A DNA stretch of 64,000 nucleotides, from positions 475,181 through 539,180 of the forward strand of contig CP064958.1 in NCBI GenBank assembly GCA_016699085.1, written 5' to 3'. Numbering within the stretch: position 1 is the stretch's first letter; each line of letters begins with the position of its first letter. The translations under genes and the position numbers were made by a program. Below the pieces are notes generated by a model, which had not been told where the DNA came from, did no database searches, and saw only the letters and a list, made by a program, of their open reading frames with translations. Shown in pieces: positions 15,695-42,806 of this stretch. Source of the stretch: Candidatus Nomurabacteria bacterium (lineage in GTDB: Bacteria > Patescibacteriota > Minisyncoccia > Phycocordibacterales > UBA9973).

Positions 15695-16318
15695 ATGGGA
15701 AAACCAGTTATATTTCTTGATTTTGATGGATTCAAATTCGATACATTAGATGCTCATGTTGAATATCAGAATTACCGGTACGGTATAAATTCTACACGAG
15801 CTGATTATGTCAAAAATCCTTCTCTTGACACAGTTATCAACAAATATTTGTCTCAGGAAAAGCAAGTGACTTCAAGAGATGTGTACGTTGATAGTGTTGA
15901 GAATTTCCTAACATCACTCGACTGGCACAAGAATGTCAAGCCTGTCGATGGAATGTGTGAAGTGATGTCAAAACTTACTCTGAAATACAAACTTGTTACG
16001 GTCACTGCTCGAGAGAAAAATGGGCTAGCAGTTATACAGCACTTTCTCGACACATATATTCCAAACTGTGTGAGTGAGATTCATTGTGTTTGGGAACACG
16101 CTGGAAATGGAATTTTTAATGCACATTCAAAAAGAGATTTTATTAAAAATTACTCTGGCAAGAAAGTCGCTTTCTTGGATGATTCTGATTATGAAATCTT
16201 AGAGTTACAAGATATTATTTTGTCGTACCTTTTTGATCCATTGGGTACACACGACGATAATAAAAAGATATTGCATCGAGTAAGAAGTTGGGAAGAGATC
16301 GGAAAATTGTTCCTTTGA
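15695..16318 (+). CDS. HAD-like 5'(3')-deoxyribonucleotidase (NT5C-like)
   Basis: VIFLDFDGFKFD (DxDGxxxD) at the N-terminus. Size 207 aa. Confidence 0.4.
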   Translation: MGKPVIFLDFDGFKFDTLDAHVEYQNYRYGINSTRADYVKNPSLDTVINKYLSQEKQVTSRDVYVDSVENFLTSLDWHKNVKPVDGMCEVMSKLTLKYKLVTVTAREKNGLAVIQHFLDTYIPNCVSEIHCVWEHAGNGIFNAHSKRDFIKNYSGKKVAFLDDSDYEILELQDIILSYLFDPLGTHDDNKKILHRVRSWEEIGKLFL

Positions 16319-16547
16319 TATAATAGACAGCACTATGTGCTGTTTTTTTATTTGTATTGCATGCAAATACACACTGTGGTATATATAAAGTATGCATTTA
16401 ACGTTTACACAATTTGTTTGGTATCGATGTCTACCCGGAACATGGCTCGGAGTGGATTGTTGTTAATTGTGTAATCTAAATCTATTTACACTAACCCCCT
16501 CCAAGTCATGGAGGGGGTTTTGTTTTGTGTCCCATACATACAACATC

Positions 16548-17597
16548 ATGTTCTTTAAAAAAATAGCTATGCAACAAACAACTAGCAGACCATCATTTCT
16601 TCCGGAAATTGTTAAAACATTCACCGTAGGCAATTGGAAGATACGAACTTTGCCAATAGAAGTACCTATTTATGCATCAGAAAAAAGCCAATTGGAGTCA
16701 CTTGCTAATCAGTGGCCAGCATGCTTTAACTCGAAGCATGCAAATTGGATGACTGACGTATTTGGGGTGCCAAGTGTCGTTATTCGGATTGATTATACGG
16801 TTAGCTTTGAGGGTAAGGTTAATGTATACGAAATCGAAGACAGACCGGCAGGATTTGAAATCGATGCACTAGCATCAGCTAAGGCCTTCCAAGCTTTTGT
16901 GGAAACACTAAAGAATATATGCGAATATACTAATAAGCCACTCGGTATCTGTGTTTCTCGAGGTCGTATGTTTAATTCTGATGATTTCTACTGGGCACAG
17001 AGACTCAAGGATTTTGGTGGTATACGAATGGTTTTTGGGGAAGTCCCAACAAATCCAGAAGATGCAATTTGGTTTGTACGGACACTTCGAGATGAAAAAG
17101 AGTACTATGCATTGTCTCCGTATTCACTTACAACTATCAAGTATGAGGGTGATAAATCATATGGTATTGCTTTAAAGTTATGGAAACCTCTAAAATATAT
17201 AGTTGGTGGCATGGATTCTTTTGAGGGGATATATGAATTCAAAAGAACTATAGAAATTCCTTGGAGTAAACCTTTTGTGGTTAAACCTGGATTTGGCTGC
17301 CGTTGTGAAAATGTACACCTGTATCATCCCAAGAGACCAAGTAACGGATTCTCGACGAAGACAAAAATTGAGAAGGCTATAGCAAACAATGAAGTTCATT
17401 ATATTCAGGAGTACTACGAACCAGAGTCGCCGGCATTTCTACCAACTGAATACGCTATGATTCGTAGATGTTACTTAGTGTTTGACATAGCGAGTAAAGC
17501 ATACAAAGTGATTGGTGGCCAATGGGAAGCAAGACCCAACTGCCATAAAATTCATGGTGCCTCTGATGCTGTTTGTGGGCCACTTGTTGTTACATAG
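16548..17597 (+). CDS. ATP-grasp-like ligase, uncharacterised
   Basis: VVKPGFGCRCENVHLY and HYIQEYYEPES resemble ATP-grasp nucleotide-binding motifs. The ORF-track start at 16467 would place a terminator hairpin (16493..16527) inside the coding region, so the start is moved to MFFKK. Confidence 0.4.
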   Translation: MFFKKIAMQQTTSRPSFLPEIVKTFTVGNWKIRTLPIEVPIYASEKSQLESLANQWPACFNSKHANWMTDVFGVPSVVIRIDYTVSFEGKVNVYEIEDRPAGFEIDALASAKAFQAFVETLKNICEYTNKPLGICVSRGRMFNSDDFYWAQRLKDFGGIRMVFGEVPTNPEDAIWFVRTLRDEKEYYALSPYSLTTIKYEGDKSYGIALKLWKPLKYIVGGMDSFEGIYEFKRTIEIPWSKPFVVKPGFGCRCENVHLYHPKRPSNGFSTKTKIEKAIANNEVHYIQEYYEPESPAFLPTEYAMIRRCYLVFDIASKAYKVIGGQWEARPNCHKIHGASDAVCGPLVVT

Positions 17598-17648
17598 AAT
17601 TTAAAAGCACGGATTTCATATCCGTGCTTTTTTGCTATACTCAAATCT

Positions 17649-18401
17649 ATGTGTAGATTATTTGCTTTTAGTGGAAATACTGGTAGCCCGGAGTACCGAG
17701 ATGCGCTCATGGCTTTTGCTGTATTGGCAGATAAAGGCTGTGTGCCGTGCGGTATTGAGCCTGGGCACCAAGACGGCTGGGGTATACATAGCTCAAACAA
17801 AGCACATGAAGTATATATCCGCTCAGTCGAACCTATTGATGGAGACAGTGTTATTTCATCAACTGAATCTGTTTCAGGTGATGGTCAGGTAATCGCTCAT
17901 TTGCGCAAGGCAACTGTTGGAACAAAAGCTATTTGTAATACCCATCCTTTTCTACGTTCAGGTATATGTTTTTGCCATAATGGCTCGATACATGCTTTTG
18001 AAAGCACGGTTTTTACTAACGATAGGCACTTGCGTGAAGGCCATACGGATTCTGAAACTTTCTTTTTACGCATTCTTGATCGCATAGACGGGCAATTAGG
18101 TGATGGTAGCCTCTCTATGTTTGAAAAGGCGATTAAGGACGAAGTTATAGAAATTCAAAAGATTAGTGAATGGACATCATTGACATGTCTACTCAAAACT
18201 AAAGAGGGGATTATACTTCACTATTTATGGAATGAAAAAGATCCCGAACGTGAGACGCTCAAATTAGATGAGTACTATACTTTTTACAAAGGCACAAAAG
18301 ATGGTATGACGATTCTATGTTCTGAGACGCTAGATATACAGGGTTTTACTTGGGAAAAACTAGACAATGGGACAATACTTACATTGCCAAATAATCATTA
18401 A
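17649..18401 (+). CDS. Class II (Ntn-type) glutamine amidotransferase, YafJ/EgtC-like
   Basis: MCRLFAFSG with the nucleophilic Cys2 directly after the Met. 250 aa. Confidence 0.7.
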   Translation: MCRLFAFSGNTGSPEYRDALMAFAVLADKGCVPCGIEPGHQDGWGIHSSNKAHEVYIRSVEPIDGDSVISSTESVSGDGQVIAHLRKATVGTKAICNTHPFLRSGICFCHNGSIHAFESTVFTNDRHLREGHTDSETFFLRILDRIDGQLGDGSLSMFEKAIKDEVIEIQKISEWTSLTCLLKTKEGIILHYLWNEKDPERETLKLDEYYTFYKGTKDGMTILCSETLDIQGFTWEKLDNGTILTLPNNH

Positions 18402-18789
18402 ATCTTGTTTTTAATGCAGGAATAACATCTTGTTTTGCGAAAAATGTTTCTTGATCGAAGAGATCCCATTTTTGACCCTCAGTTAATTTAATTTTATCTG
18501 TTTCTTCAGCAGAGATACTAGCTACCATGAAAACTGCTTTTTGGTTTGGATCTTTTTGAGCTGGGTATACTTTTTCCCAAAGAAAAGATTGAGGTGATAG
18601 GACTATGCCAAGTTCTTCCTCTACTTCACGTATAGCGCATTCTTGCGAACTCTCTGTACCTTCTCTCCCTCCACCTACAAAATCCCACATGTTGGCATTA
18701 AACAATCCGGGCTTGTTATCTCTGAGATGCATTAAAATTTTGTCACCAACGAGTAGTGCGATCTTTACCCCATGAAAATCGTTTTCCAT
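18379..18789 (-). CDS. NUDIX hydrolase
   Basis: Nudix box GGGREGTESSQECAIREVEEELGI. Confidence 0.75.
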   Translation of the reverse strand: MENDFHGVKIALLVGDKILMHLRDNKPGLFNANMWDFVGGGREGTESSQECAIREVEEELGIVLSPQSFLWEKVYPAQKDPNQKAVFMVASISAEETDKIKLTEGQKWDLFDQETFFAKQDVIPALKTRFNDYLAM

Positions 18790-19984: not shown

Positions 19985-20092
19985 ATATAAGTAGTATTTT
20001 AGTAATTTTTTTGTAGCTTAGCTTCCTTCTTTAGATTTGCCTAGTCGAGTTGCGCCCTTATTTTTAGATGAGCCAAATCAGAGACTTGTTGC

Positions 20093-20170
20093 TGCGGGAC
20101 TTGCACTCGAACCCCGCCCGAACGATTTCTATCATTCAGTCGGGCGGGCAAGATACACGGTTCCAGAAAC
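20093..20170 (-). other. Partial tRNA-Gln copy running from the anticodon stem to the acceptor 3' strand. It has a 36-nt hairpin inserted between the T-stem 5' strand and the T-loop.
   Basis: Shares 23 nt (GGTTTCTGGAACCGTGTATCTTG) with the complete tRNA, then carries the insert ccccgcccgaacgatttctatcattcagtcgggcgg (a 9-bp perfect stem), then GTTCGAGTGCAAGTCCCGCA. The T-stem is CTTGC/GCAAG versus CTTGG/CCAAG in the full gene, a compensatory change. No 5' acceptor strand or D-arm is present. Confidence 0.6.
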
Positions 20171-20193
20171 CTCTATTGCTTTTATATTCAGGG

Positions 20194-20264
20194 CTGCGGG
20201 ACTTGGACTCGAACCAAGATACACGGTTCCAGAAACCGTAGTCCTACCATTAGACGATCCCGCA
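20194..20264 (-). tRNA. tRNA-Gln (anticodon CUG)
   Basis: Manual fold. Acceptor UGCGGGA/UCCCGCA (U1-A72, G73 discriminator, as for Gln identity). D-loop AAUGGUA, anticodon stem ACGGU/ACCGU, anticodon loop UUCUGGA, T-loop UUCGAGU. 71 nt with no encoded CCA. Confidence 0.85.
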
Positions 20265-20356
20265 ATAGGTCAACCATACAGGAAAAGAGGCTTTTTTTCA
20301 AGAAAATAAAAAGCCCACATAATAATGGGCTGGTAAATTTGTCTCTACTTGTAATG

Positions 20357-27496: not shown

Positions 27497-29467
27497 TTAA
27501 ATACCTAAAATAACAGGGATAACTAATGGACGCTTCGCAGTTTTCTGGTACAAGAACTTGGCAACAGTATCAGTAAGATTGTTTTTTACGAAATCAAAGT
27601 TAATCGGGTTCATGCCAGCTGTTTCGTCTTCGACAGTTTTACGTATCAAGTTTCTCGCTTCGTGTAGGAGTTCTTGATTTTCTTTAAGGTAGACGAATCC
27701 TCGTGATATGAGGTCAGGGGATTTTTTGAGTTTACCAGTCGCAGCGTTCACCATGACCATAACGATGAACATGCCATCTGCTGCTAGCATTCGTCTATCG
27801 CGTATAACAACATCTTGTTCGTCGCCAACTGAGAAACCATCAACCATCATGTTTCCAGATGGCGCTTTCTCTTTGCAGAGAACCATTTTGGTACCATTAT
27901 CAACTATCTCTATAATCGAGCCGTTATCTGGAACGATTATATGGTTATCTGGCATACCTAGTGATAGCGCCAGCTCTTTGTGTAGCTTAAGCATGTAGTG
28001 ATTTCCGTGGATAGGAATGAAAAACTTTGGATGAGTTTTAGTGTGAAGCCATTTGATTTCTGGAATATTACCGTGACCTGTTGAATGGATTGAAACTTCA
28101 CTCGTGCGATAGTGAATAATGCGTACACCTTGTCGAGCGAGGTTATCTTTTAATTTCTGCACTGCGAGCTCGTTGCCTGGAACGATTGAAGCTGATAAGA
28201 CGATTGTGTCTCCTTTGCCGAGCTTGAAGTTCTTGTGGGTCTTATTTGATGCACGCATGAGTGCTGAAAATTCCTCACCTTGGCCACCGGTTGATAGTAT
28301 GATAATTCGATCTGGTGGGTAGTTGTCGACTTGCTCGATCGTAATGATCGTGCCTTTTTTAGGGTTCAATAATCCAGCTTGGATTGAGACTTCCATATTT
28401 GTTTTCATACTGCGTCCTTCCAAGACAATGTGTTTATTGAGGACTTCTGCAATCTCGACAATTTTTATTAATCGTTCGATATGTGATGCAAAAGCGGCAA
28501 TAATGAGACGCCCTTTGACGCTCCGGATAATACTCTCGAGTCCTTTGTGAACTTCAGTTTCAGGGATTGCCCAGTCAGGATTTTCAATGTTCGTCGAGTC
28601 AGTCATCAAAAGTAGTACTTTAGCTTTATCAAAAATACTGTACTCTTTCTCTTCCCGATCTGATGGAATACCGTTTTGATGTTCAAGTTTGTAATCTCCA
28701 GGAGTTACTATCCAACCATGTGGAGTTTCGACAATGATTCCCATTGAATCTGGGACCGTATGAGTAACACCAAAGAAGCGAATTTTTATATTGCCAACAG
28801 TAATAACACTATCGTTTTCTACGATATGAGCATCAAGCGGTTTGAAATGTGGGAATTCTGACTGACGCTTTTTGATGAGAAGGATTGATAGATTTCGAGA
28901 ATATATTGGGGGGTTGCCAATACGATCCATAACAATCGGCACTCCGCCGATGTGATCTAGGTGGCCGTGCGTGATTATCATGGCTCTAATTTTATCTTTT
29001 CTCTCTTCGAGATAGGTCGTATTTGGAATAATATAGTCAATACCGGGAGTATCTTCAGTTTTAAATTGCATACCTGCATCAATAACGATAATATCGTTAC
29101 CAATTTCGATTGCTGTCATGTTCTTGCCGATTTCTTCCACACCTCCAAGTGGCACAATACGAATATTGCCAGGTGCAAGTGGAGGAACTTTTACGGCTGG
29201 ACGTTTAGAAACACTTGCCTTCGATGGTGGTGGTGTGCCACGTCGTTTTGGTGGGAATTTCGAATAGCGAAATTTCTGTCCACTCGCTGCAGGTCTCGCT
29301 GTTCGAAGTGGGTGCGGTGTACTTTTTGTTGGTGCAGTCCGTGCTGGTACTGGCGTATCATTTCTCACCACTTGTGTACGTGGATGATTGCGAAATGCTG
29401 GTCTGTCTGGTCGTTGTGGTTTGTCGTTCATAGTTTTTGTATTTATTAATGGGTGAATAGTTTCCAA
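27497..29467 (-). CDS. rnj: Ribonuclease J (MBL/beta-CASP), with a roughly 100-aa Pro/Arg/Thr-rich N-terminal extension
   Basis: ITHGHLDHIGG, beta-CASP region, and the C-terminal domain of the RNase J family. Confidence 0.9.
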   Translation of the reverse strand: METIHPLINTKTMNDKPQRPDRPAFRNHPRTQVVRNDTPVPARTAPTKSTPHPLRTARPAASGQKFRYSKFPPKRRGTPPPSKASVSKRPAVKVPPLAPGNIRIVPLGGVEEIGKNMTAIEIGNDIIVIDAGMQFKTEDTPGIDYIIPNTTYLEERKDKIRAMIITHGHLDHIGGVPIVMDRIGNPPIYSRNLSILLIKKRQSEFPHFKPLDAHIVENDSVITVGNIKIRFFGVTHTVPDSMGIIVETPHGWIVTPGDYKLEHQNGIPSDREEKEYSIFDKAKVLLLMTDSTNIENPDWAIPETEVHKGLESIIRSVKGRLIIAAFASHIERLIKIVEIAEVLNKHIVLEGRSMKTNMEVSIQAGLLNPKKGTIITIEQVDNYPPDRIIILSTGGQGEEFSALMRASNKTHKNFKLGKGDTIVLSASIVPGNELAVQKLKDNLARQGVRIIHYRTSEVSIHSTGHGNIPEIKWLHTKTHPKFFIPIHGNHYMLKLHKELALSLGMPDNHIIVPDNGSIIEIVDNGTKMVLCKEKAPSGNMMVDGFSVGDEQDVVIRDRRMLAADGMFIVMVMVNAATGKLKKSPDLISRGFVYLKENQELLHEARNLIRKTVEDETAGMNPINFDFVKNNLTDTVAKFLYQKTAKRPLVIPVILGI

Positions 29468-33748: not shown

Positions 33749-33964
33749 ATCTCCACTCTTCAGTAAGAAGGGTATCTAACAGATTATGCCTATGAAAAAC
33801 TAAACTTTTTATTTTGTAAACAAGTAAAGTTCATATATGCGCCTGTTAGACGCTTTTTTCTTTGAAAATTTAAACATCAATGTAATGTGAATTAAAGTCA
33901 GTAAGTAAAGTAATCTGAGTCAAGAAAATGTATTTTTTCTTTTGTTTCGTTCTATTTTTTAAGT

Positions 33965-35608
33965 AGAGTTTGATCCTAGCTCAGGATGAACGCTGGCGGC
34001 GTGGATAAGGCATGCAAGTCGAACGAATTTTAATTGTTGAAGTTGAAATGAAGTAGCAATATGGAATTTTGATAGATATTTTTAAAATTAGTGGCGAACG
34101 AGGTAGTAACACGTGGGTACTTCCCCCTAAGTCGCGAATAATCCATCGAAAGGTGGACTAATACGCGATATACTTCAGAGTGAAAGATTTTTCGCTTAGG
34201 GAAAGGCCTGCGGGATATCAGCTAGTTGGTAGTGTAATAGACTACCAAGGCTATGACGTCTAGGGGAGCTGAGAGGCTGACCCCCACCGATGGGACTGAG
34301 ACACGGCCCATACACCTACGGGTGGCTGCAGTCAAGAACCTTCCACAATGGACGAAAGTCTGATGGAGCGACGCCGCGTGATTGATGAAGTCCTTCGGGA
34401 CGTAAAGATCTTTTATGAGGGAAGAAGTTTATTGACGGTACCTCATGAATAAGGGGCTCCTAATCTCGTGCCAGCAGGAGCGGTAATACGAGAGCCCCGA
34501 GCGTTATCCGGAATTATTGGGCGTAAAGGGTGCGTCGGTTGTTATATTAGCCTCACTTTAAATCTTCATGCTCAACATGAAGCATGGGCGGGGAACGGTA
34601 TGACTAGAGGTTGTGAGAGGTGTGCGGAACTCAAGGTGTAGGGGTGAAATCCGTTGATATCTTGGGGAACACCAAATGCGAAGGCAGCACACTGGCACAT
34701 ATCTGACACTCAAGCACGAAAGCGTGGGTAGCGAATGGGATTAGATACCCCAGTAGTCCACGCCCTAAACGATGATCTCTCGGTTTTCGGAGTATCGACC
34801 CTCTGAGAGCCTAAGCTAACGCGTTAAGAGATCCGCCTGGGAAATACGGCCGCAAGGCTAAAACTCAAAGGAATAGACGGGGACTCGCACAAGCAGTGGA
34901 TTATGTGGTTTAATTCGATGGTAAACGAAGAACCTCACCAGGGTTTGACACCTACGTGAAAGCTCTAAGAAACTAGAGCCCTCGCAAGACTAGTAGGCAG
35001 GTGTTGCATGGCCGTCGTCAGTTCGTGGTTTGAATTGTTCCCTTAAGTGGGGTAACGAACGCAACCCTCGTCGTGTGTTATATTTGTCACACGAGACCGC
35101 CCAGAACAAAGCGCGTGAATGCGCTTCTAGTAGAAAGTGTAAAGTTGAAAGTCAAAAGTGAATTCAGAAATGCATTTACTTTAAACTTTCTACATTCAAC
35201 TTTTGACTTGAAGTGTACATCGTACGTTTCGTTCTGGGAGGAAGGAGAGGATGACGCCAGGTCAGCATGACCCTTTGATATCCTGGGCTACACACATAAT
35301 ACAATGACGGCTACAACGCGTTGCGACGAGGTAACTCTGAGCTAATCGTTATAAAAGCCGCCTCAGTTCGGATTGAGGTCTGCAACTCGACCTCATGAAG
35401 TTGGAATTGCTAGTAATCGCAGGTCAGACATACTGCGGTGAATACGTTCTCGAGTCTTGTACTCACCGCCCGTCAAGTCAAGGGAGCTGGGAATACCCGA
35501 AATTTCTACATTAGTAGGACCTAAGGTAAGCTCAGTGACAGGGACTAAGTCGTAACAAGGCACGGGTAGCGGAAGCTGCTCGTGGAATAATTCAATTTGA
35601 AACCTTTC
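33965..35608 (+). rRNA. 16S ribosomal RNA with lineage-specific insertions (expanded V1 and a roughly 120-nt insert in the helix-40 loop). The 3' tail is atypical and lacks CCUCC.
   Basis: AGAGTTTGATCCTAGCTCAGGATGAACGCTGGCGGCGTG at the 5' end. Universal blocks GTGCCAGCAGGAGCGGTAATAC, GGATTAGATACCC, GCATGGCCGTCGTCAGTTCGTG, TACACACATAATACAATG, GTCGTAACAAGG. The 3' boundary is approximate. Confidence 0.9.
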
Positions 35609-41380: not shown

Positions 41381-41394
41381 AATACAAAATGAAA

Positions 41395-41420
41395 AAGCTT
41401 CCCGAAAGGGAAGTTTTTTC
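41395..41420 (+). terminator. Intrinsic terminator after rnpB
   Basis: cttccc gaaa gggaag followed by tttttt. Confidence 0.8.
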
Positions 41421-41501
41421 TGTTATACTTATACTATGTTTATCAACAATTCTCCCTGGCTCAAACAGCTCGCTCGAACTCGACCAGTTGCGAAAGGAAA
41501 A

Positions 41502-42806
41502 ATGACTGAACAAACTGATATTGCAATTATTGGAGGAGGAATTGCTGGAGTTACTACTGCTTACTTCACGCTGCTCTTTACAGATAAAAAGGTGACTCTT
41601 ATTGAAGCAGATAAAATTGCCCATGGGGCAACAGGGCATAATGCCGGCCAGGTAACTAGTTATTTCGAGGCGCCTTTCCAGGACTTTGTAAAAAAATACG
41701 GACTTGAATTAGCTGCTCATGCACAGCGTGCCATTGAGTTTGATGCTAGAATTTTGCTCAATGAGATTATCCGCGATGCACAATTACTTACACCAAAGTC
41801 AGAATTTGAAGGATATAACGGTCTCGAAACTAAAGAACAAATTCTCATCTCGCTCGAAGATCTTTTTCAAAGAGGTGAAGCAGTAATTGCAACTCGCGCT
41901 CTCTTGATTTCAAAAGAGTGGCACGAGCATATCCACTTACCAGAAAAATATAAACCGTACTACAGTATTGTCGATAAAGAAAATATACTCTCGTTACTTG
42001 AGACAATTGATGATCGTTATATTGCCTGTTTACCTTTTCTTTCAGGATGCATGAATAGTGCGCTTTTTACTGAAGAGTTGGTAGGTTTTCTCATGAGTAC
42101 ATACAAAGAACGTTTTACCTTACTTGAAGAAACTTTGGTAGAGGATTGCATACTCTCTCAAAACGAGGCGCGACTTAAAAGTGGAACCAATGAAATACAT
42201 GCTTCACGAGTAGTGCTATGTACTAATGGTTTTGAAAAAATTACGCTTAAAAATCAATCTGGTTCTGACATTGATACTAAATTTCATCATAGTGTCACTG
42301 GACTTATAGGTTACATGGCAGGATTCTTAGATGTTCCTGACCAGAAACCTGCTGCGAGTATTTATTCAAAGACTGATTCTGATACTGGGGAAGCATATTA
42401 TTATGCGACAAGACGTCCCTATGAGCATTTGGGTGGTAAGTATAATATTCTTTCGGTAGGCGGTCCTGAAGAAATGGTTGAAGATACACGAACCTATGAT
42501 CCAAAAATGCCATATCCAGAAAAGCATCTTGAGTTCATATTTAGTTTTATAAAAAAAACATTTAGTAGAACATACGAACGAAGTGCGTTTTATTTTGCAT
42601 GGCATGGCCTTATGGGATATACGCCCAACGGTGTACGACTTATTGGCAGTGAGCCATGTAACCCTATTTTAATGTACAACTTAGGTTGTAATGGTGTAGG
42701 AATACTCCCATCTATTTATGGGGGTCATAGAATTGCGCGGATTTTGCGTGGTGATACTATCGAACCATCTATTTTTGACCCCCAGGATCAACGATGTCCC
42801 ACCTAG
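41502..42806 (+). CDS. FAD-dependent oxidoreductase (DAO family)
   Basis: DIAIIGGGIAGVTTAYF dinucleotide-binding motif. About 435 aa. The start is placed at MTEQTD, clear of rnpB. Confidence 0.75.
   Translation: MTEQTDIAIIGGGIAGVTTAYFTLLFTDKKVTLIEADKIAHGATGHNAGQVTSYFEAPFQDFVKKYGLELAAHAQRAIEFDARILLNEIIRDAQLLTPKSEFEGYNGLETKEQILISLEDLFQRGEAVIATRALLISKEWHEHIHLPEKYKPYYSIVDKENILSLLETIDDRYIACLPFLSGCMNSALFTEELVGFLMSTYKERFTLLEETLVEDCILSQNEARLKSGTNEIHASRVVLCTNGFEKITLKNQSGSDIDTKFHHSVTGLIGYMAGFLDVPDQKPAASIYSKTDSDTGEAYYYATRRPYEHLGGKYNILSVGGPEEMVEDTRTYDPKMPYPEKHLEFIFSFIKKTFSRTYERSAFYFAWHGLMGYTPNGVRLIGSEPCNPILMYNLGCNGVGILPSIYGGHRIARILRGDTIEPSIFDPQDQRCPT

Follow-up and report, generated by a model that had tools for sequence, protein, structure and literature searches.

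The predicted ligase and hydrolase genes

We describe here two adjacent genes, and the leader that precedes them, in a stretch of 64,000 nucleotides (nt) from Candidatus Nomurabacteria bacterium (GenBank assembly GCA_016699085.1, contig CP064958.1, positions 475,181 to 539,180 of the forward strand), which we call the window and in whose coordinates all positions are given. The G+C content of the window is ~39%. Its host belongs to the Patescibacteria (candidate phyla radiation, CPR), which make up a large share of bacterial diversity, have ~1-Mb genomes and almost no biosynthesis, and in which most conserved 'hypothetical' genes are unexplained. Gene A encodes a predicted carboxylate-amine ligase with a permuted ATP-grasp fold, and gene B a stand-alone amidohydrolase of the N-terminal nucleophile (Ntn) type; both are open reading frames (ORFs) on the forward strand at the coordinates given by an earlier, first-pass annotation of the window, and gene A is preceded by a leader with the features of an attenuator (Table 1).

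Table 1. Coordinates of the leader elements, genes and intergenic signals at the locus. uORF, upstream ORF; aa, amino acids.
Feature	Position	Strand	Description
Putative sigma-70-like promoter	16357..16385	+	-35 TTGCAT (16357-16362), 17-nt spacer, -10 TATATA (16380-16385); read from sequence
Leader uORF	16392..16466	+	24 codons, MHLTFTQFVWYRCLPGTWLGVDCC and stop
Long imperfect hairpin, segments 1:2	16407..16472	+	Encloses most of the uORF; 21 pairs
Antiterminator, segments 2:3	16441..16511	+	16441-16467 (..GGCUCGGAGUGGAUUGUUGUUAA) pairs with 16484-16511 (terminator 5' arm and loop)
Intrinsic terminator	16493..16529	+	AACCCCCTCC-aagtc-atGGAGGGGGTT then TTGTTTTGTG; 11 pairs, 7 G-C
Gene A	16569..17597	+	Permuted ATP-grasp carboxylate-amine ligase (predicted activity), uncatalogued family, 342 aa; alternative start 16548 gives 349 aa
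A-B hairpin, terminator-like	17603..17633	+	Stem 17603-17631, G+C core 17607-17627, then TTTTTT
-10-like box TATACT	17635-17640	+	8 nt before gene B ATG
Gene B	17649..18401	+	Stand-alone Ntn (class II glutamine-amidotransferase-like, EgtC/YafJ-like) amidohydrolase, 250 aa

The ORF of gene A offers three possible start points (16467, 16548 and 16569). We consider the ATG at 16569 (MQQTTSRPS), rather than that at 16548, to be probably the start used, because a syntenic copy of 82% identity in a metagenome-assembled genome (MAG) labelled 'Candidatus Saccharibacteria' (locus L017) begins at the equivalent MQKTTSRPS, and two of three public gene calls agree.

The first-pass annotation had read ATP-grasp-like motifs in the product of gene A, and both of the motifs it quoted, VVKPGFGCRCENVHLY at residues 243-258 and HYIQEYYEPES at residues 284-294, are present and align to the Lys-loop and hinge of RimK/MptN (E ~0.01), DcsG and YgiC. 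In NCBIfam, gene A found only local RimK/MptN matches at E ~0.01 (residues 214-291); Pfam gave no match at E <= 0.1 for gene A or for 46 sampled relatives, and nothing significant was found in the PDB by phmmer sequence search or by profile search. Relatives numbered 21 in a word-indexed search of 5.8 billion proteins, and 412 (191 at E < 1e-30) when 1.84 billion cluster representatives were searched exhaustively with a profile, the figure of ~412 being the size of the Patescibacteria family in clusters at 50% identity. The members are mostly of ~300 aa, and are restricted to the Patescibacteria with the exception of one locus in a MAG labelled Gammaproteobacteria (L021). Judged from these sequence comparisons, gene A belongs to a family of its own, described by no library. 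A few members carry N-terminal extensions, of ~160-180 aa (P0028, P0059, P0145) or of ~110-140 aa (P0075, P0035); the two types are each homologous within the type (E 1e-11 to 1e-30), and Pfam found no match in the four extended members scanned (P0028, P0059, P0075, P0035).

Across 56 diverse members, the residues conserved in at least 93% were W56, P75, S76, R80, D82, E95, E97, R99, P100, A101, G102, R140, D145, D146, R178, G201, K203, Y205, G206, W212, K246, P247, Q287, P292, R307, G323, G324, H336, G337 and G344. The K246-P-x-x-G loop and Q287 match the phosphate-binding Lys-loop and the hinge of RimK/MptN, DcsG and YgiC, and the block R80-x-D82...E95-x-E97-D-R-P-x-G resembles the 'R-x-D...E-x-N' metal-site block of ATP-grasp C-domains; from the similarity of this motif to DcsG, R80, D82, E95, E97 and R99 would be metal ligands. 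The metal-site block stands before the Lys-loop in gene A (80-102, then 246-292), whereas in the classical enzyme DcsG it stands after the Lys-loop (aligned blocks given as 129-183 then 247-271), indicating that the fold of gene A is complete and circularly permuted, a permutation that is known from the ATP-grasp of eukaryotic glutathione synthetase. The first-pass annotation, which missed this permutation, had seen no recognisable N-terminal substrate domain; that statement did not hold, the N-terminal half being the permuted metal-site half (R-x-D...E-x-E-D-R-P-x-G).

Structure comparison found a three-domain ATP-grasp fold in gene A, of which 250-284 residues superpose sequentially on the permuted members 2io7, 3n6x (which we take to represent Pfam CP_ATPgrasp_2), 7uka and 5oeu. 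The best fold matches were Gsp synthetase, trypanothione synthetase and (homo)glutathione synthetases. The annotation had named assignment to a non-ligase fold as the outcome that would speak against a ligase; this was searched for and not found, the structural neighbours all being acid-amine ligases that act on peptide or acid carboxylates. They include Cp1B and YgiC/YjfC, which are acid-amine ligases (PMC12568646). With hhalign, YgiC alone was matched at 3.7% probability and a YgiC-family profile at 11.8%, over short motifs only; since the profile comparisons fail, gene A is not filed under GSP_synth or YgiC/YjfC, with which it shares the fold alone. Gene A is thus a complete permuted ATP-grasp enzyme of the structural clade of GspS and eukaryotic glutathione synthetase, with a predicted ligase activity.

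For gene B, the earlier reading as an Ntn-type hydrolase beginning MCRLFAF was borne out by Pfam GATase_4 (PF13230), which matched at 58.3 bits (cut-off 23) and was also matched by all 10 close partner proteins. NCBIfam EgtC (TIGR03442) scored 50.4 bits, against an equivalog cut-off of 218.65, and the sequence matches in the PDB were the YafJ-like proteins 1te5 and 3mdn. At NCBI, an identical copy of the product is titled 'class II glutamine amidotransferase [Candidatus Nomurabacteria bacterium]'. Among 34 homologues the nucleophile C2 is at least 90% conserved, and R86, N111-G112 and D134 are invariant; after PurF and GlmS, we take the Cys to be the nucleophile, the Asn-Gly to form the oxyanion hole, and the Arg and Asp to hold the alpha-carboxylate and alpha-amino groups in the glutamine pocket. 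A structure model built from database homologues has the Ntn alpha-beta-beta-alpha fold, and its best structural match is EgtC (4zfj). Gene B is nevertheless no EgtC orthologue, lying far below the EgtC cut-off and outside an egt context, as egtA, egtB, egtD and egtE were found within ~6 kb in none of the loci examined; the partner ligase of the EgtC pathway is moreover of the GCS2/EgtA type, whereas here it is an ATP-grasp enzyme. By its residues and its modelled fold, gene B appears to be an Ntn amidohydrolase that stands alone, is catalytically intact and would act on an amide of the gamma-glutamyl type, and the pocket residues suggest a fit to a gamma-glutamyl or glutamine amide. At its 3' end, gene B shares 23 nt (18379-18401) with the 3' end of a convergent Nudix gene (18379-18789, reverse strand).

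Pairing of ligase and hydrolase across genomes

We gathered 70 loci of the gene A family from GTDB genomes and metagenomes, forming 58 clusters at 90% identity. In all six of the close relatives of gene A with adequate flanks, a GATase_4 gene directly adjoins the ligase gene (downstream in five, upstream in one), and the other neighbours all differ. In distant relatives (25-30% identity), an overlapping class-I glutamine amidotransferase (GATase)/Peptidase_C26 gene or an M20 peptidase gene is found instead. Of 44 downstream neighbours typed with Pfam, 25 were M20 proteins with the M20 dimerisation domain, 10 were GATase_4 and 3 class-I GATase/C26 proteins; one of the 44 matched ATP-grasp_3. 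In a tblastn census of the 48 informative non-redundant loci, a same-strand hydrolase gene directly adjoins the ligase gene in 45 (30 M20, 12 GATase_4, 3 C26); in two of the remaining three an M20 gene lies one position further on (+2), and in one there is no hydrolase. An extra gene without an NCBIfam match separates the ligase and M20 genes at L021:6218-7501 and L059:4978-5970. Co-occurrence, which the first-pass annotation had put forward as a check on its proposal of a ligase paired with a hydrolase, therefore supports that proposal; the alternative M20 and C26 partners had escaped it. The M20 partners are deacylases of the ArgE/DapE family (TIGR01910, best E-value 3.4e-65).

Apart from these partners, no gene family recurs beside the ligase in more than five loci. 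The labels that the annotation had attached to the neighbours in the window (NDT-like, NT5C-like, Nudix, DUF1801 and PrmC-like methyltransferase) were upheld, weakly to clearly, and the NDT-like, NT5C/HAD-like, Nudix, DUF1801 and HemK/PrmC-like methyltransferase genes are not conserved neighbours in other loci. A 63-aa ORF between the ligase and M20 genes of L012 was considered as a LysW-like carrier and rejected, since the other loci have gaps of 1-120 nt and nothing that corresponds to it. Among the PADLOC anti-phage defence profiles there was no match for gene A or gene B, and the module is no defence system. We found no fusion of gene A to a GATase among 150 listed family members.

In the ligase tree, partner type tracks clades: GATase_4 occurs in the clade of the window and in three deep branches, and C26 was acquired twice independently, indicating non-orthologous displacement within one role. 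That three unrelated amidohydrolase folds share one genomic slot suggests that whatever occupies it hydrolyses an amide connected with the ligase reaction, and M20 in particular argues against a glutaminase subunit, since enzymes of this kind could not serve as one. GATase_4 and C26 enzymes attack their substrates at the gamma-glutamyl side, and ArgE, DapE and LysK act on N-acylated alpha-amino acids; LysK, of the ArgE/DapE family, cleaves a gamma-glutamyl-lysine isopeptide. From these specificities we infer that an N-(gamma-glutamyl) amino acid, or a conjugate like it, would be the simplest substrate shared by all of them.

The two genes appear to be separate in transcription. The terminator hairpin that had been annotated between gene A and gene B is indeed present, as a stem followed by a T-run, with a free energy of -17.6 kcal/mol (z -6.25; 0 of 200 shuffles as stable), and, of 29 loci checked, nearly all have a strong hairpin in the corresponding position; in many of them it carries a T-run, and a TATAAT-like box lies 6-12 nt ahead of the hydrolase start. 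Because the hairpin and then the box precede the hydrolase ATG, the hydrolase may be transcribed separately, on its own, possibly leaderless transcript, and the attenuator probably controls the ligase alone.

The upstream leader and its surroundings

A leader of 200-350 nt, which the first-pass annotation had missed, lies before all ligase genes examined and ends in an intrinsic terminator just upstream of the start codon, including at loci where the gene upstream is encoded on the other strand. The NT5C/HAD-like gene found upstream of the leader in the window (15695-16318) is missing from the closest relative, L017, where the leader comes directly after the divergent NDT-like gene, indicating that the leader is linked to the ligase gene rather than to the gene that precedes it. 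In the window the -10 of the putative promoter ends 6 nt before the uORF ATG. In 24 of 35 leaders from divergent loci, a TTGACA-like -35 is followed by a TATAAT-like -10 whose end lies 4-12 nt upstream of the uORF ATG, and there is no Shine-Dalgarno sequence. With the -10 so close to the ATG and no Shine-Dalgarno sequence, the uORF is probably leaderless or near-leaderless.

Equivalent uORFs precede the ligase gene in ~45 of ~52 non-redundant loci, in ligase clades of all three partner types, whose ligases are only 25-30% identical. They have 16-35 codons and encode a polar N-terminus and then an aromatic block, usually with one Trp (QFFWHYF, YFFYFFWF, AWFYFYF, NWYFYF and LIWVLFIV in other loci); in the window the first Trp codon is at 16419-16421, with Phe and Tyr codons on either side. 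Phe is enriched 2.25-fold in the uORFs (p 2e-14), and Phe and Tyr together account for 38% of the six residues flanking the Trp. The distance from Trp to stop varies from 1 to ~20 codons. Past the aromatic block, the window and L006 differ in the frame in which they read homologous nucleotides (GGA-GTG-GAT in the window, G-GAG-CGG-AT in L006), suggesting that this part of the uORF is conserved as RNA and not as peptide. In four loci (L045, L046, L060 and L051) the unit of uORF and leader stands twice in tandem before the ligase gene (in L045 at -420 and -243, counted from the ligase start); examples of the tandem uORFs are MNKQTVVAMYFWMLAILFTKRDRFVCVQN and MNKQIITTSYLWFILMLFFTKRDRFVCVQN.

The RNA of the leader has two alternative states; in one of them the 3' half of the long hairpin pairs with the terminator 5' arm and loop to form the antiterminator. 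In the four close leaders, the helices of the long hairpin (segments 1:2) are paired in 87.5-100% of cells each, against 38-57% for the whole structure when the partners are slid, and the outer helix shows compensatory changes across more distant loci. The RNAalifold consensus of the same four leaders is the antiterminator (29 pairs, 6 with compensatory change); a count over 24 pairs showed pairing in 90.6% of cells (37-60% once the partners are slid) and 5 double-sided changes. The alternative state of hairpin plus terminator reaches 92.6% pairing. We also folded 35 curated leaders, beginning 15 nt beyond the Trp codon and stopping at the terminator loop, with the terminator 3' arm withheld, and in 26 of them at least 60% of the 5' arm paired upstream; compared with shuffles, the median z was -3.5, and for 32 of the 35 at most 5 of 100 shuffles were as stable. 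With a ribosome placed at the uORF stop, folding gave the terminator.

A covariance model built from the four close leaders (R1) found strong matches to close relatives only; it also matched both leader units of L045. MAFFT with RNAalifold gave no structure for nine divergent leaders. No second leader copy was found in the window: an R1 match at 41386-41532 (reverse strand) is antisense to a gene start, and a uORF-like match at 28031 falls within a gene of 656 aa on the opposite strand, and both were rejected. Between 15500 and 19000, the only Rfam match was Phe_leader at 24.8 bits (gathering score 55, E 0.45), a weak resemblance that we ascribe to shared attenuator architecture.

The leader fits a ribosome-mediated attenuator of the trp/phe type, which would be turned on upon stalling at Trp, Phe or Tyr codons. 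It fits poorly to a precursor peptide or a TnaC-like sensor; an arrest peptide of the TnaC kind, sensing free Trp, was rejected on the variable distance from Trp to stop, and a T-box or riboswitch on the lack of an Rfam match and on the conserved leaderless ORF inside the element. In common with the trp, pheA and his leaders and the mycobacterial leaderless attenuators with a Cys uORF, the leader has a short ORF with many regulatory codons, 1:2, 2:3 and 3:4 helices that exclude one another and, close ahead of the regulated gene, an intrinsic terminator. It differs from known attenuators in its mix of Trp, Phe and Tyr (and His) codons in place of a run for a single amino acid, and in its apparently leaderless uORF; it occurs in Patescibacteria, controls a ligase rather than a biosynthetic operon, and has no Rfam family. 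A full-text literature search found no paper on leader-peptide attenuation in Patescibacteria.

Genes for tryptophanyl-tRNA synthetase (TrpRS) and tyrosyl-tRNA synthetase (TyrRS) adjoin the module in five loci from different branches of the ligase tree. A TrpRS gene begins 4-9 nt after the ligase-M20 pair in L012 (2495-3523) and L026 (6120-7112) and stands immediately before the leader in L014 (4639-5649), and a TyrRS gene directly follows the pair in L035 (2238-3404) and L037 (2662-3900). On a rough estimate, made without a formal test, such adjacency would arise by chance in <1% of loci, and it independently ties the module to aromatic aminoacyl-tRNA supply. A MetRS gene lies immediately upstream in L030 (typed by NCBIfam) and in L039 and L050 (grouped with L030 by BLAST clustering).

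Elsewhere in the window, a 16S rRNA gene (33958-35597, forward strand) spans 1640 nt; it matches the bacterial model over its entire 1533 positions and has ~100 nt of extra sequence, and neither 23S nor 5S rRNA was found at gathering score across the 64 kb, suggesting that the rRNA genes are unlinked. The sole tRNA gene is tRNA-Gln (anticodon CTG; 20191-20265, reverse strand); a forward-strand 'ORF' at 20037-20309 overlaps it and is probably no gene. Besides the 16S rRNA and this tRNA, nothing in the window reaches an Rfam gathering score.

A proposed conjugate cycle and its regulation

We consider it fairly probable that the locus is a conserved module of Patescibacteria, in which a permuted ATP-grasp ligase makes, and an amidohydrolase breaks, a conjugate of the gamma-glutamyl (N-acyl) amino-acid type, under an attenuator tied to aromatic amino-acid supply. 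The ligase would phosphorylate a carboxylate with ATP-Mg to an acyl-phosphate and then join an amine, and the product would most likely be an N-(gamma-glutamyl) or N-acyl amino acid or a dipeptide-like conjugate. The hydrolase would cut the amide of this conjugate, to give glutamate and the amine; in sister clades the place of the Ntn enzyme is taken by a gamma-glutamyl hydrolase of the class-I GATase/C26 kind or, in most cases, by an M20 deacylase of the ArgE/DapE/LysK type. A ribosome stalled at the Trp, Phe or Tyr codons of the leaderless uORF would free the antiterminator strand and switch the ligase on, and one reading through to the uORF stop would let the terminator form. The attenuator would act only before the ligase gene, with the hydrolase seemingly under its own promoter.

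Several points weigh against this reading. In the window, the terminator remains the minimum-energy structure even with a ribosome at the Trp codon, so that antitermination there must be kinetic or co-transcriptional. The enrichment of Trp in the uORFs (3.1-fold) is partly circular, as they were selected for aromatic content, and in one close relative (L067) the uORF Trp is replaced by Arg. Gene A has no profile link to Pfam GSP_synth (PF03738). About 20 positions differ systematically between ligases of the GATase_4 and M20 clades, including the charge swaps H64/E, E104/G, R181/P, E200/K and E254/R; the substrates may thus vary from clade to clade, and the three hydrolases may fall short of strict equivalence. 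A ligase and a hydrolase for one bond would moreover form a futile cycle unless separated by time, space or an intervening step, and it is paradoxical for a ligase induced by starvation to consume the limiting amino acid.

Other readings of the pair have to be set beside it. Gene B might be the glutaminase subunit of a two-subunit, glutamine-dependent amidotransferase, channelling ammonia to gene A for the conversion of a carboxylate to a carboxamide (of the Asn/Gln type, or cell-wall iso-Gln). ATP-dependent synthetases paired with GATases are common (CPS, MurT/GatD, AsnB), partners of both the class-II and class-I GATase types occur, and the pocket residues of gene B are those that bind glutamine. 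We nevertheless regard this as unlikely: a constant, glutaminase-competent subunit is not what the census shows, since two thirds of the adjacent partners (30 of 45) are M20 metallo-deacylases of the ArgE/DapE type, which are unable to release ammonia from glutamine. The best structural match of gene B, EgtC, is a hydrolase, a characterised stand-alone GATase_4 protein that hydrolyses gamma-glutamyl amides, and the terminator-like hairpin and promoter-like box between the genes would be unusual for obligate subunits. The 150 listed family members also include no fusion of gene A to a GATase. The same hairpin and box could be taken to mean that two unrelated housekeeping genes are neighbours by chance, without functional coupling. 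This is highly improbable, given conserved adjacency, order and strand in 45 of 48 non-redundant loci whose ligases are 25-60% identical and whose other neighbours change, and given the swapping of the partner among three unrelated amidohydrolase folds at one position.

Two further proposals keep a ligase and a hydrolase and differ over the substrate. Gene A might tag a peptide or protein C-terminus, as do RimK, TTL and LysX-LysW-LysK or as in RiPPs (peptides made on the ribosome and modified after translation), with the uORF product or another protein supplying the carboxylate and the hydrolase removing the added residue. The structural neighbours GspS, YgiC/YjfC and glutathione synthetases do act on peptide C-terminal carboxylates, a small ORF stands before the ligase in nearly all loci, at times in two tandem copies, and an M20 partner of the ArgE/DapE/LysK type beside an ATP-grasp recalls LysX/LysK. 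The C-termini and lengths of the uORFs are however unconserved, with 1 to ~20 residues after the Trp; close relatives read their 3' parts in different frames yet preserve the RNA pairing, the uORF lies within terminator and antiterminator helices that exclude one another, and no other modification enzymes are conserved nearby, making a tagging system a doubtful prospect. A cycle of low-molecular-weight thiol or polyamine conjugates made by gene A and degraded by gene B, as in GspSA, PuuA/PuuD and yeast DUG, would agree with the best fold matches of gene A, and Ntn GATase (Dug3), M20 (Dug1/Dug2) and C26 (PuuD) enzymes all degrade gamma-glutamyl compounds. We hold it to be quite improbable, as no gamma-glutamylcysteine ligase, polyamine or thiol genes recur beside the module, regulation appears to work through aromatic codons, the associated genes are those of TrpRS and TyrRS, and gene A lacks similarity to PF03738 at the sequence level.

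Among characterised systems, E. coli GspSA (2io7) and the peptide-spermidine ligases YgiC/YjfC (7uka), of PF03738, have their fold in common with gene A, without sequence or profile similarity, and differ from the module in regulation and phylogenetic range. GspSA, with synthetase and amidase in one protein, shares with LysX/LysK and the module a make-and-break logic; its amidase is however a CHAP domain fused to the synthetase, whereas here the hydrolase is a separate gene of the Ntn, C26 or M20 type and gene A has ~340 aa and no extra domain. LysX/ArgX-LysW-LysK similarly joins an ATP-grasp to an ArgE/DapE-type M20 enzyme around a gamma-glutamyl amide, but a LysW-like carrier ending in an acidic C-terminus is lacking from the module, as are LysZ, LysY and LysJ genes, and its ligase is of a different, permuted clade. 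The closest documented functional parallel is hmrA/ldmS of Staphylococcus aureus, which has the same pairing of ATP-grasp and M20. This operon encodes an M20 amidohydrolase and an ATP-grasp L-aspartate-L-methionine ligase, and is controlled by an S-box riboswitch, CymR or CodY and derepressed on Met/Cys limitation; its authors point to a standing paradox, that LdmS consumes the limiting amino acid (PMC9486568). The module is set apart from hmrA/ldmS, GspSA and LysX/LysK by its ligase sequence family, its interchangeable hydrolase folds, its attenuator and its restriction to Patescibacteria.

By analogy with the Met/Cys-limited LdmS/HmrA, the proposed conjugate module would be tied to aromatic amino-acid or aminoacyl-tRNA supply, and storage, trapping or buffering of aromatic amino acids, signalling and tagging are candidate roles. 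A more specific and rather speculative version, to which we give only a small chance, is a starvation circuit in amino-acid-auxotrophic Patescibacteria. The leaderless Trp/Phe/Tyr attenuator, which would be the first attenuator of the leader-peptide kind described in the radiation, would induce the ligase to make a gamma-glutamyl (N-acyl) aromatic conjugate, and the constitutive Ntn, C26 or M20 hydrolase would free the amino acid again, forming an ATP-driven trap or buffer that helps epibionts to hold scarce aromatic amino acids for TrpRS and TyrRS.

A family without a Pfam or NCBIfam model thus gains a fold, a predicted reaction type, an obligate partner and a regulatory signal that points towards aromatic amino-acid economy, and the three alternative folds of the partner narrow the bond that would be made and broken. 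The attenuator appears to be a compact, leaderless, codon-sensing switch in a group whose cis-regulation is essentially uncharted, and offers a computational handle towards co-regulated genes. If the conjugate does store or trap an amino acid, this would also help to explain the paradox of LdmS/HmrA in Staphylococcus.

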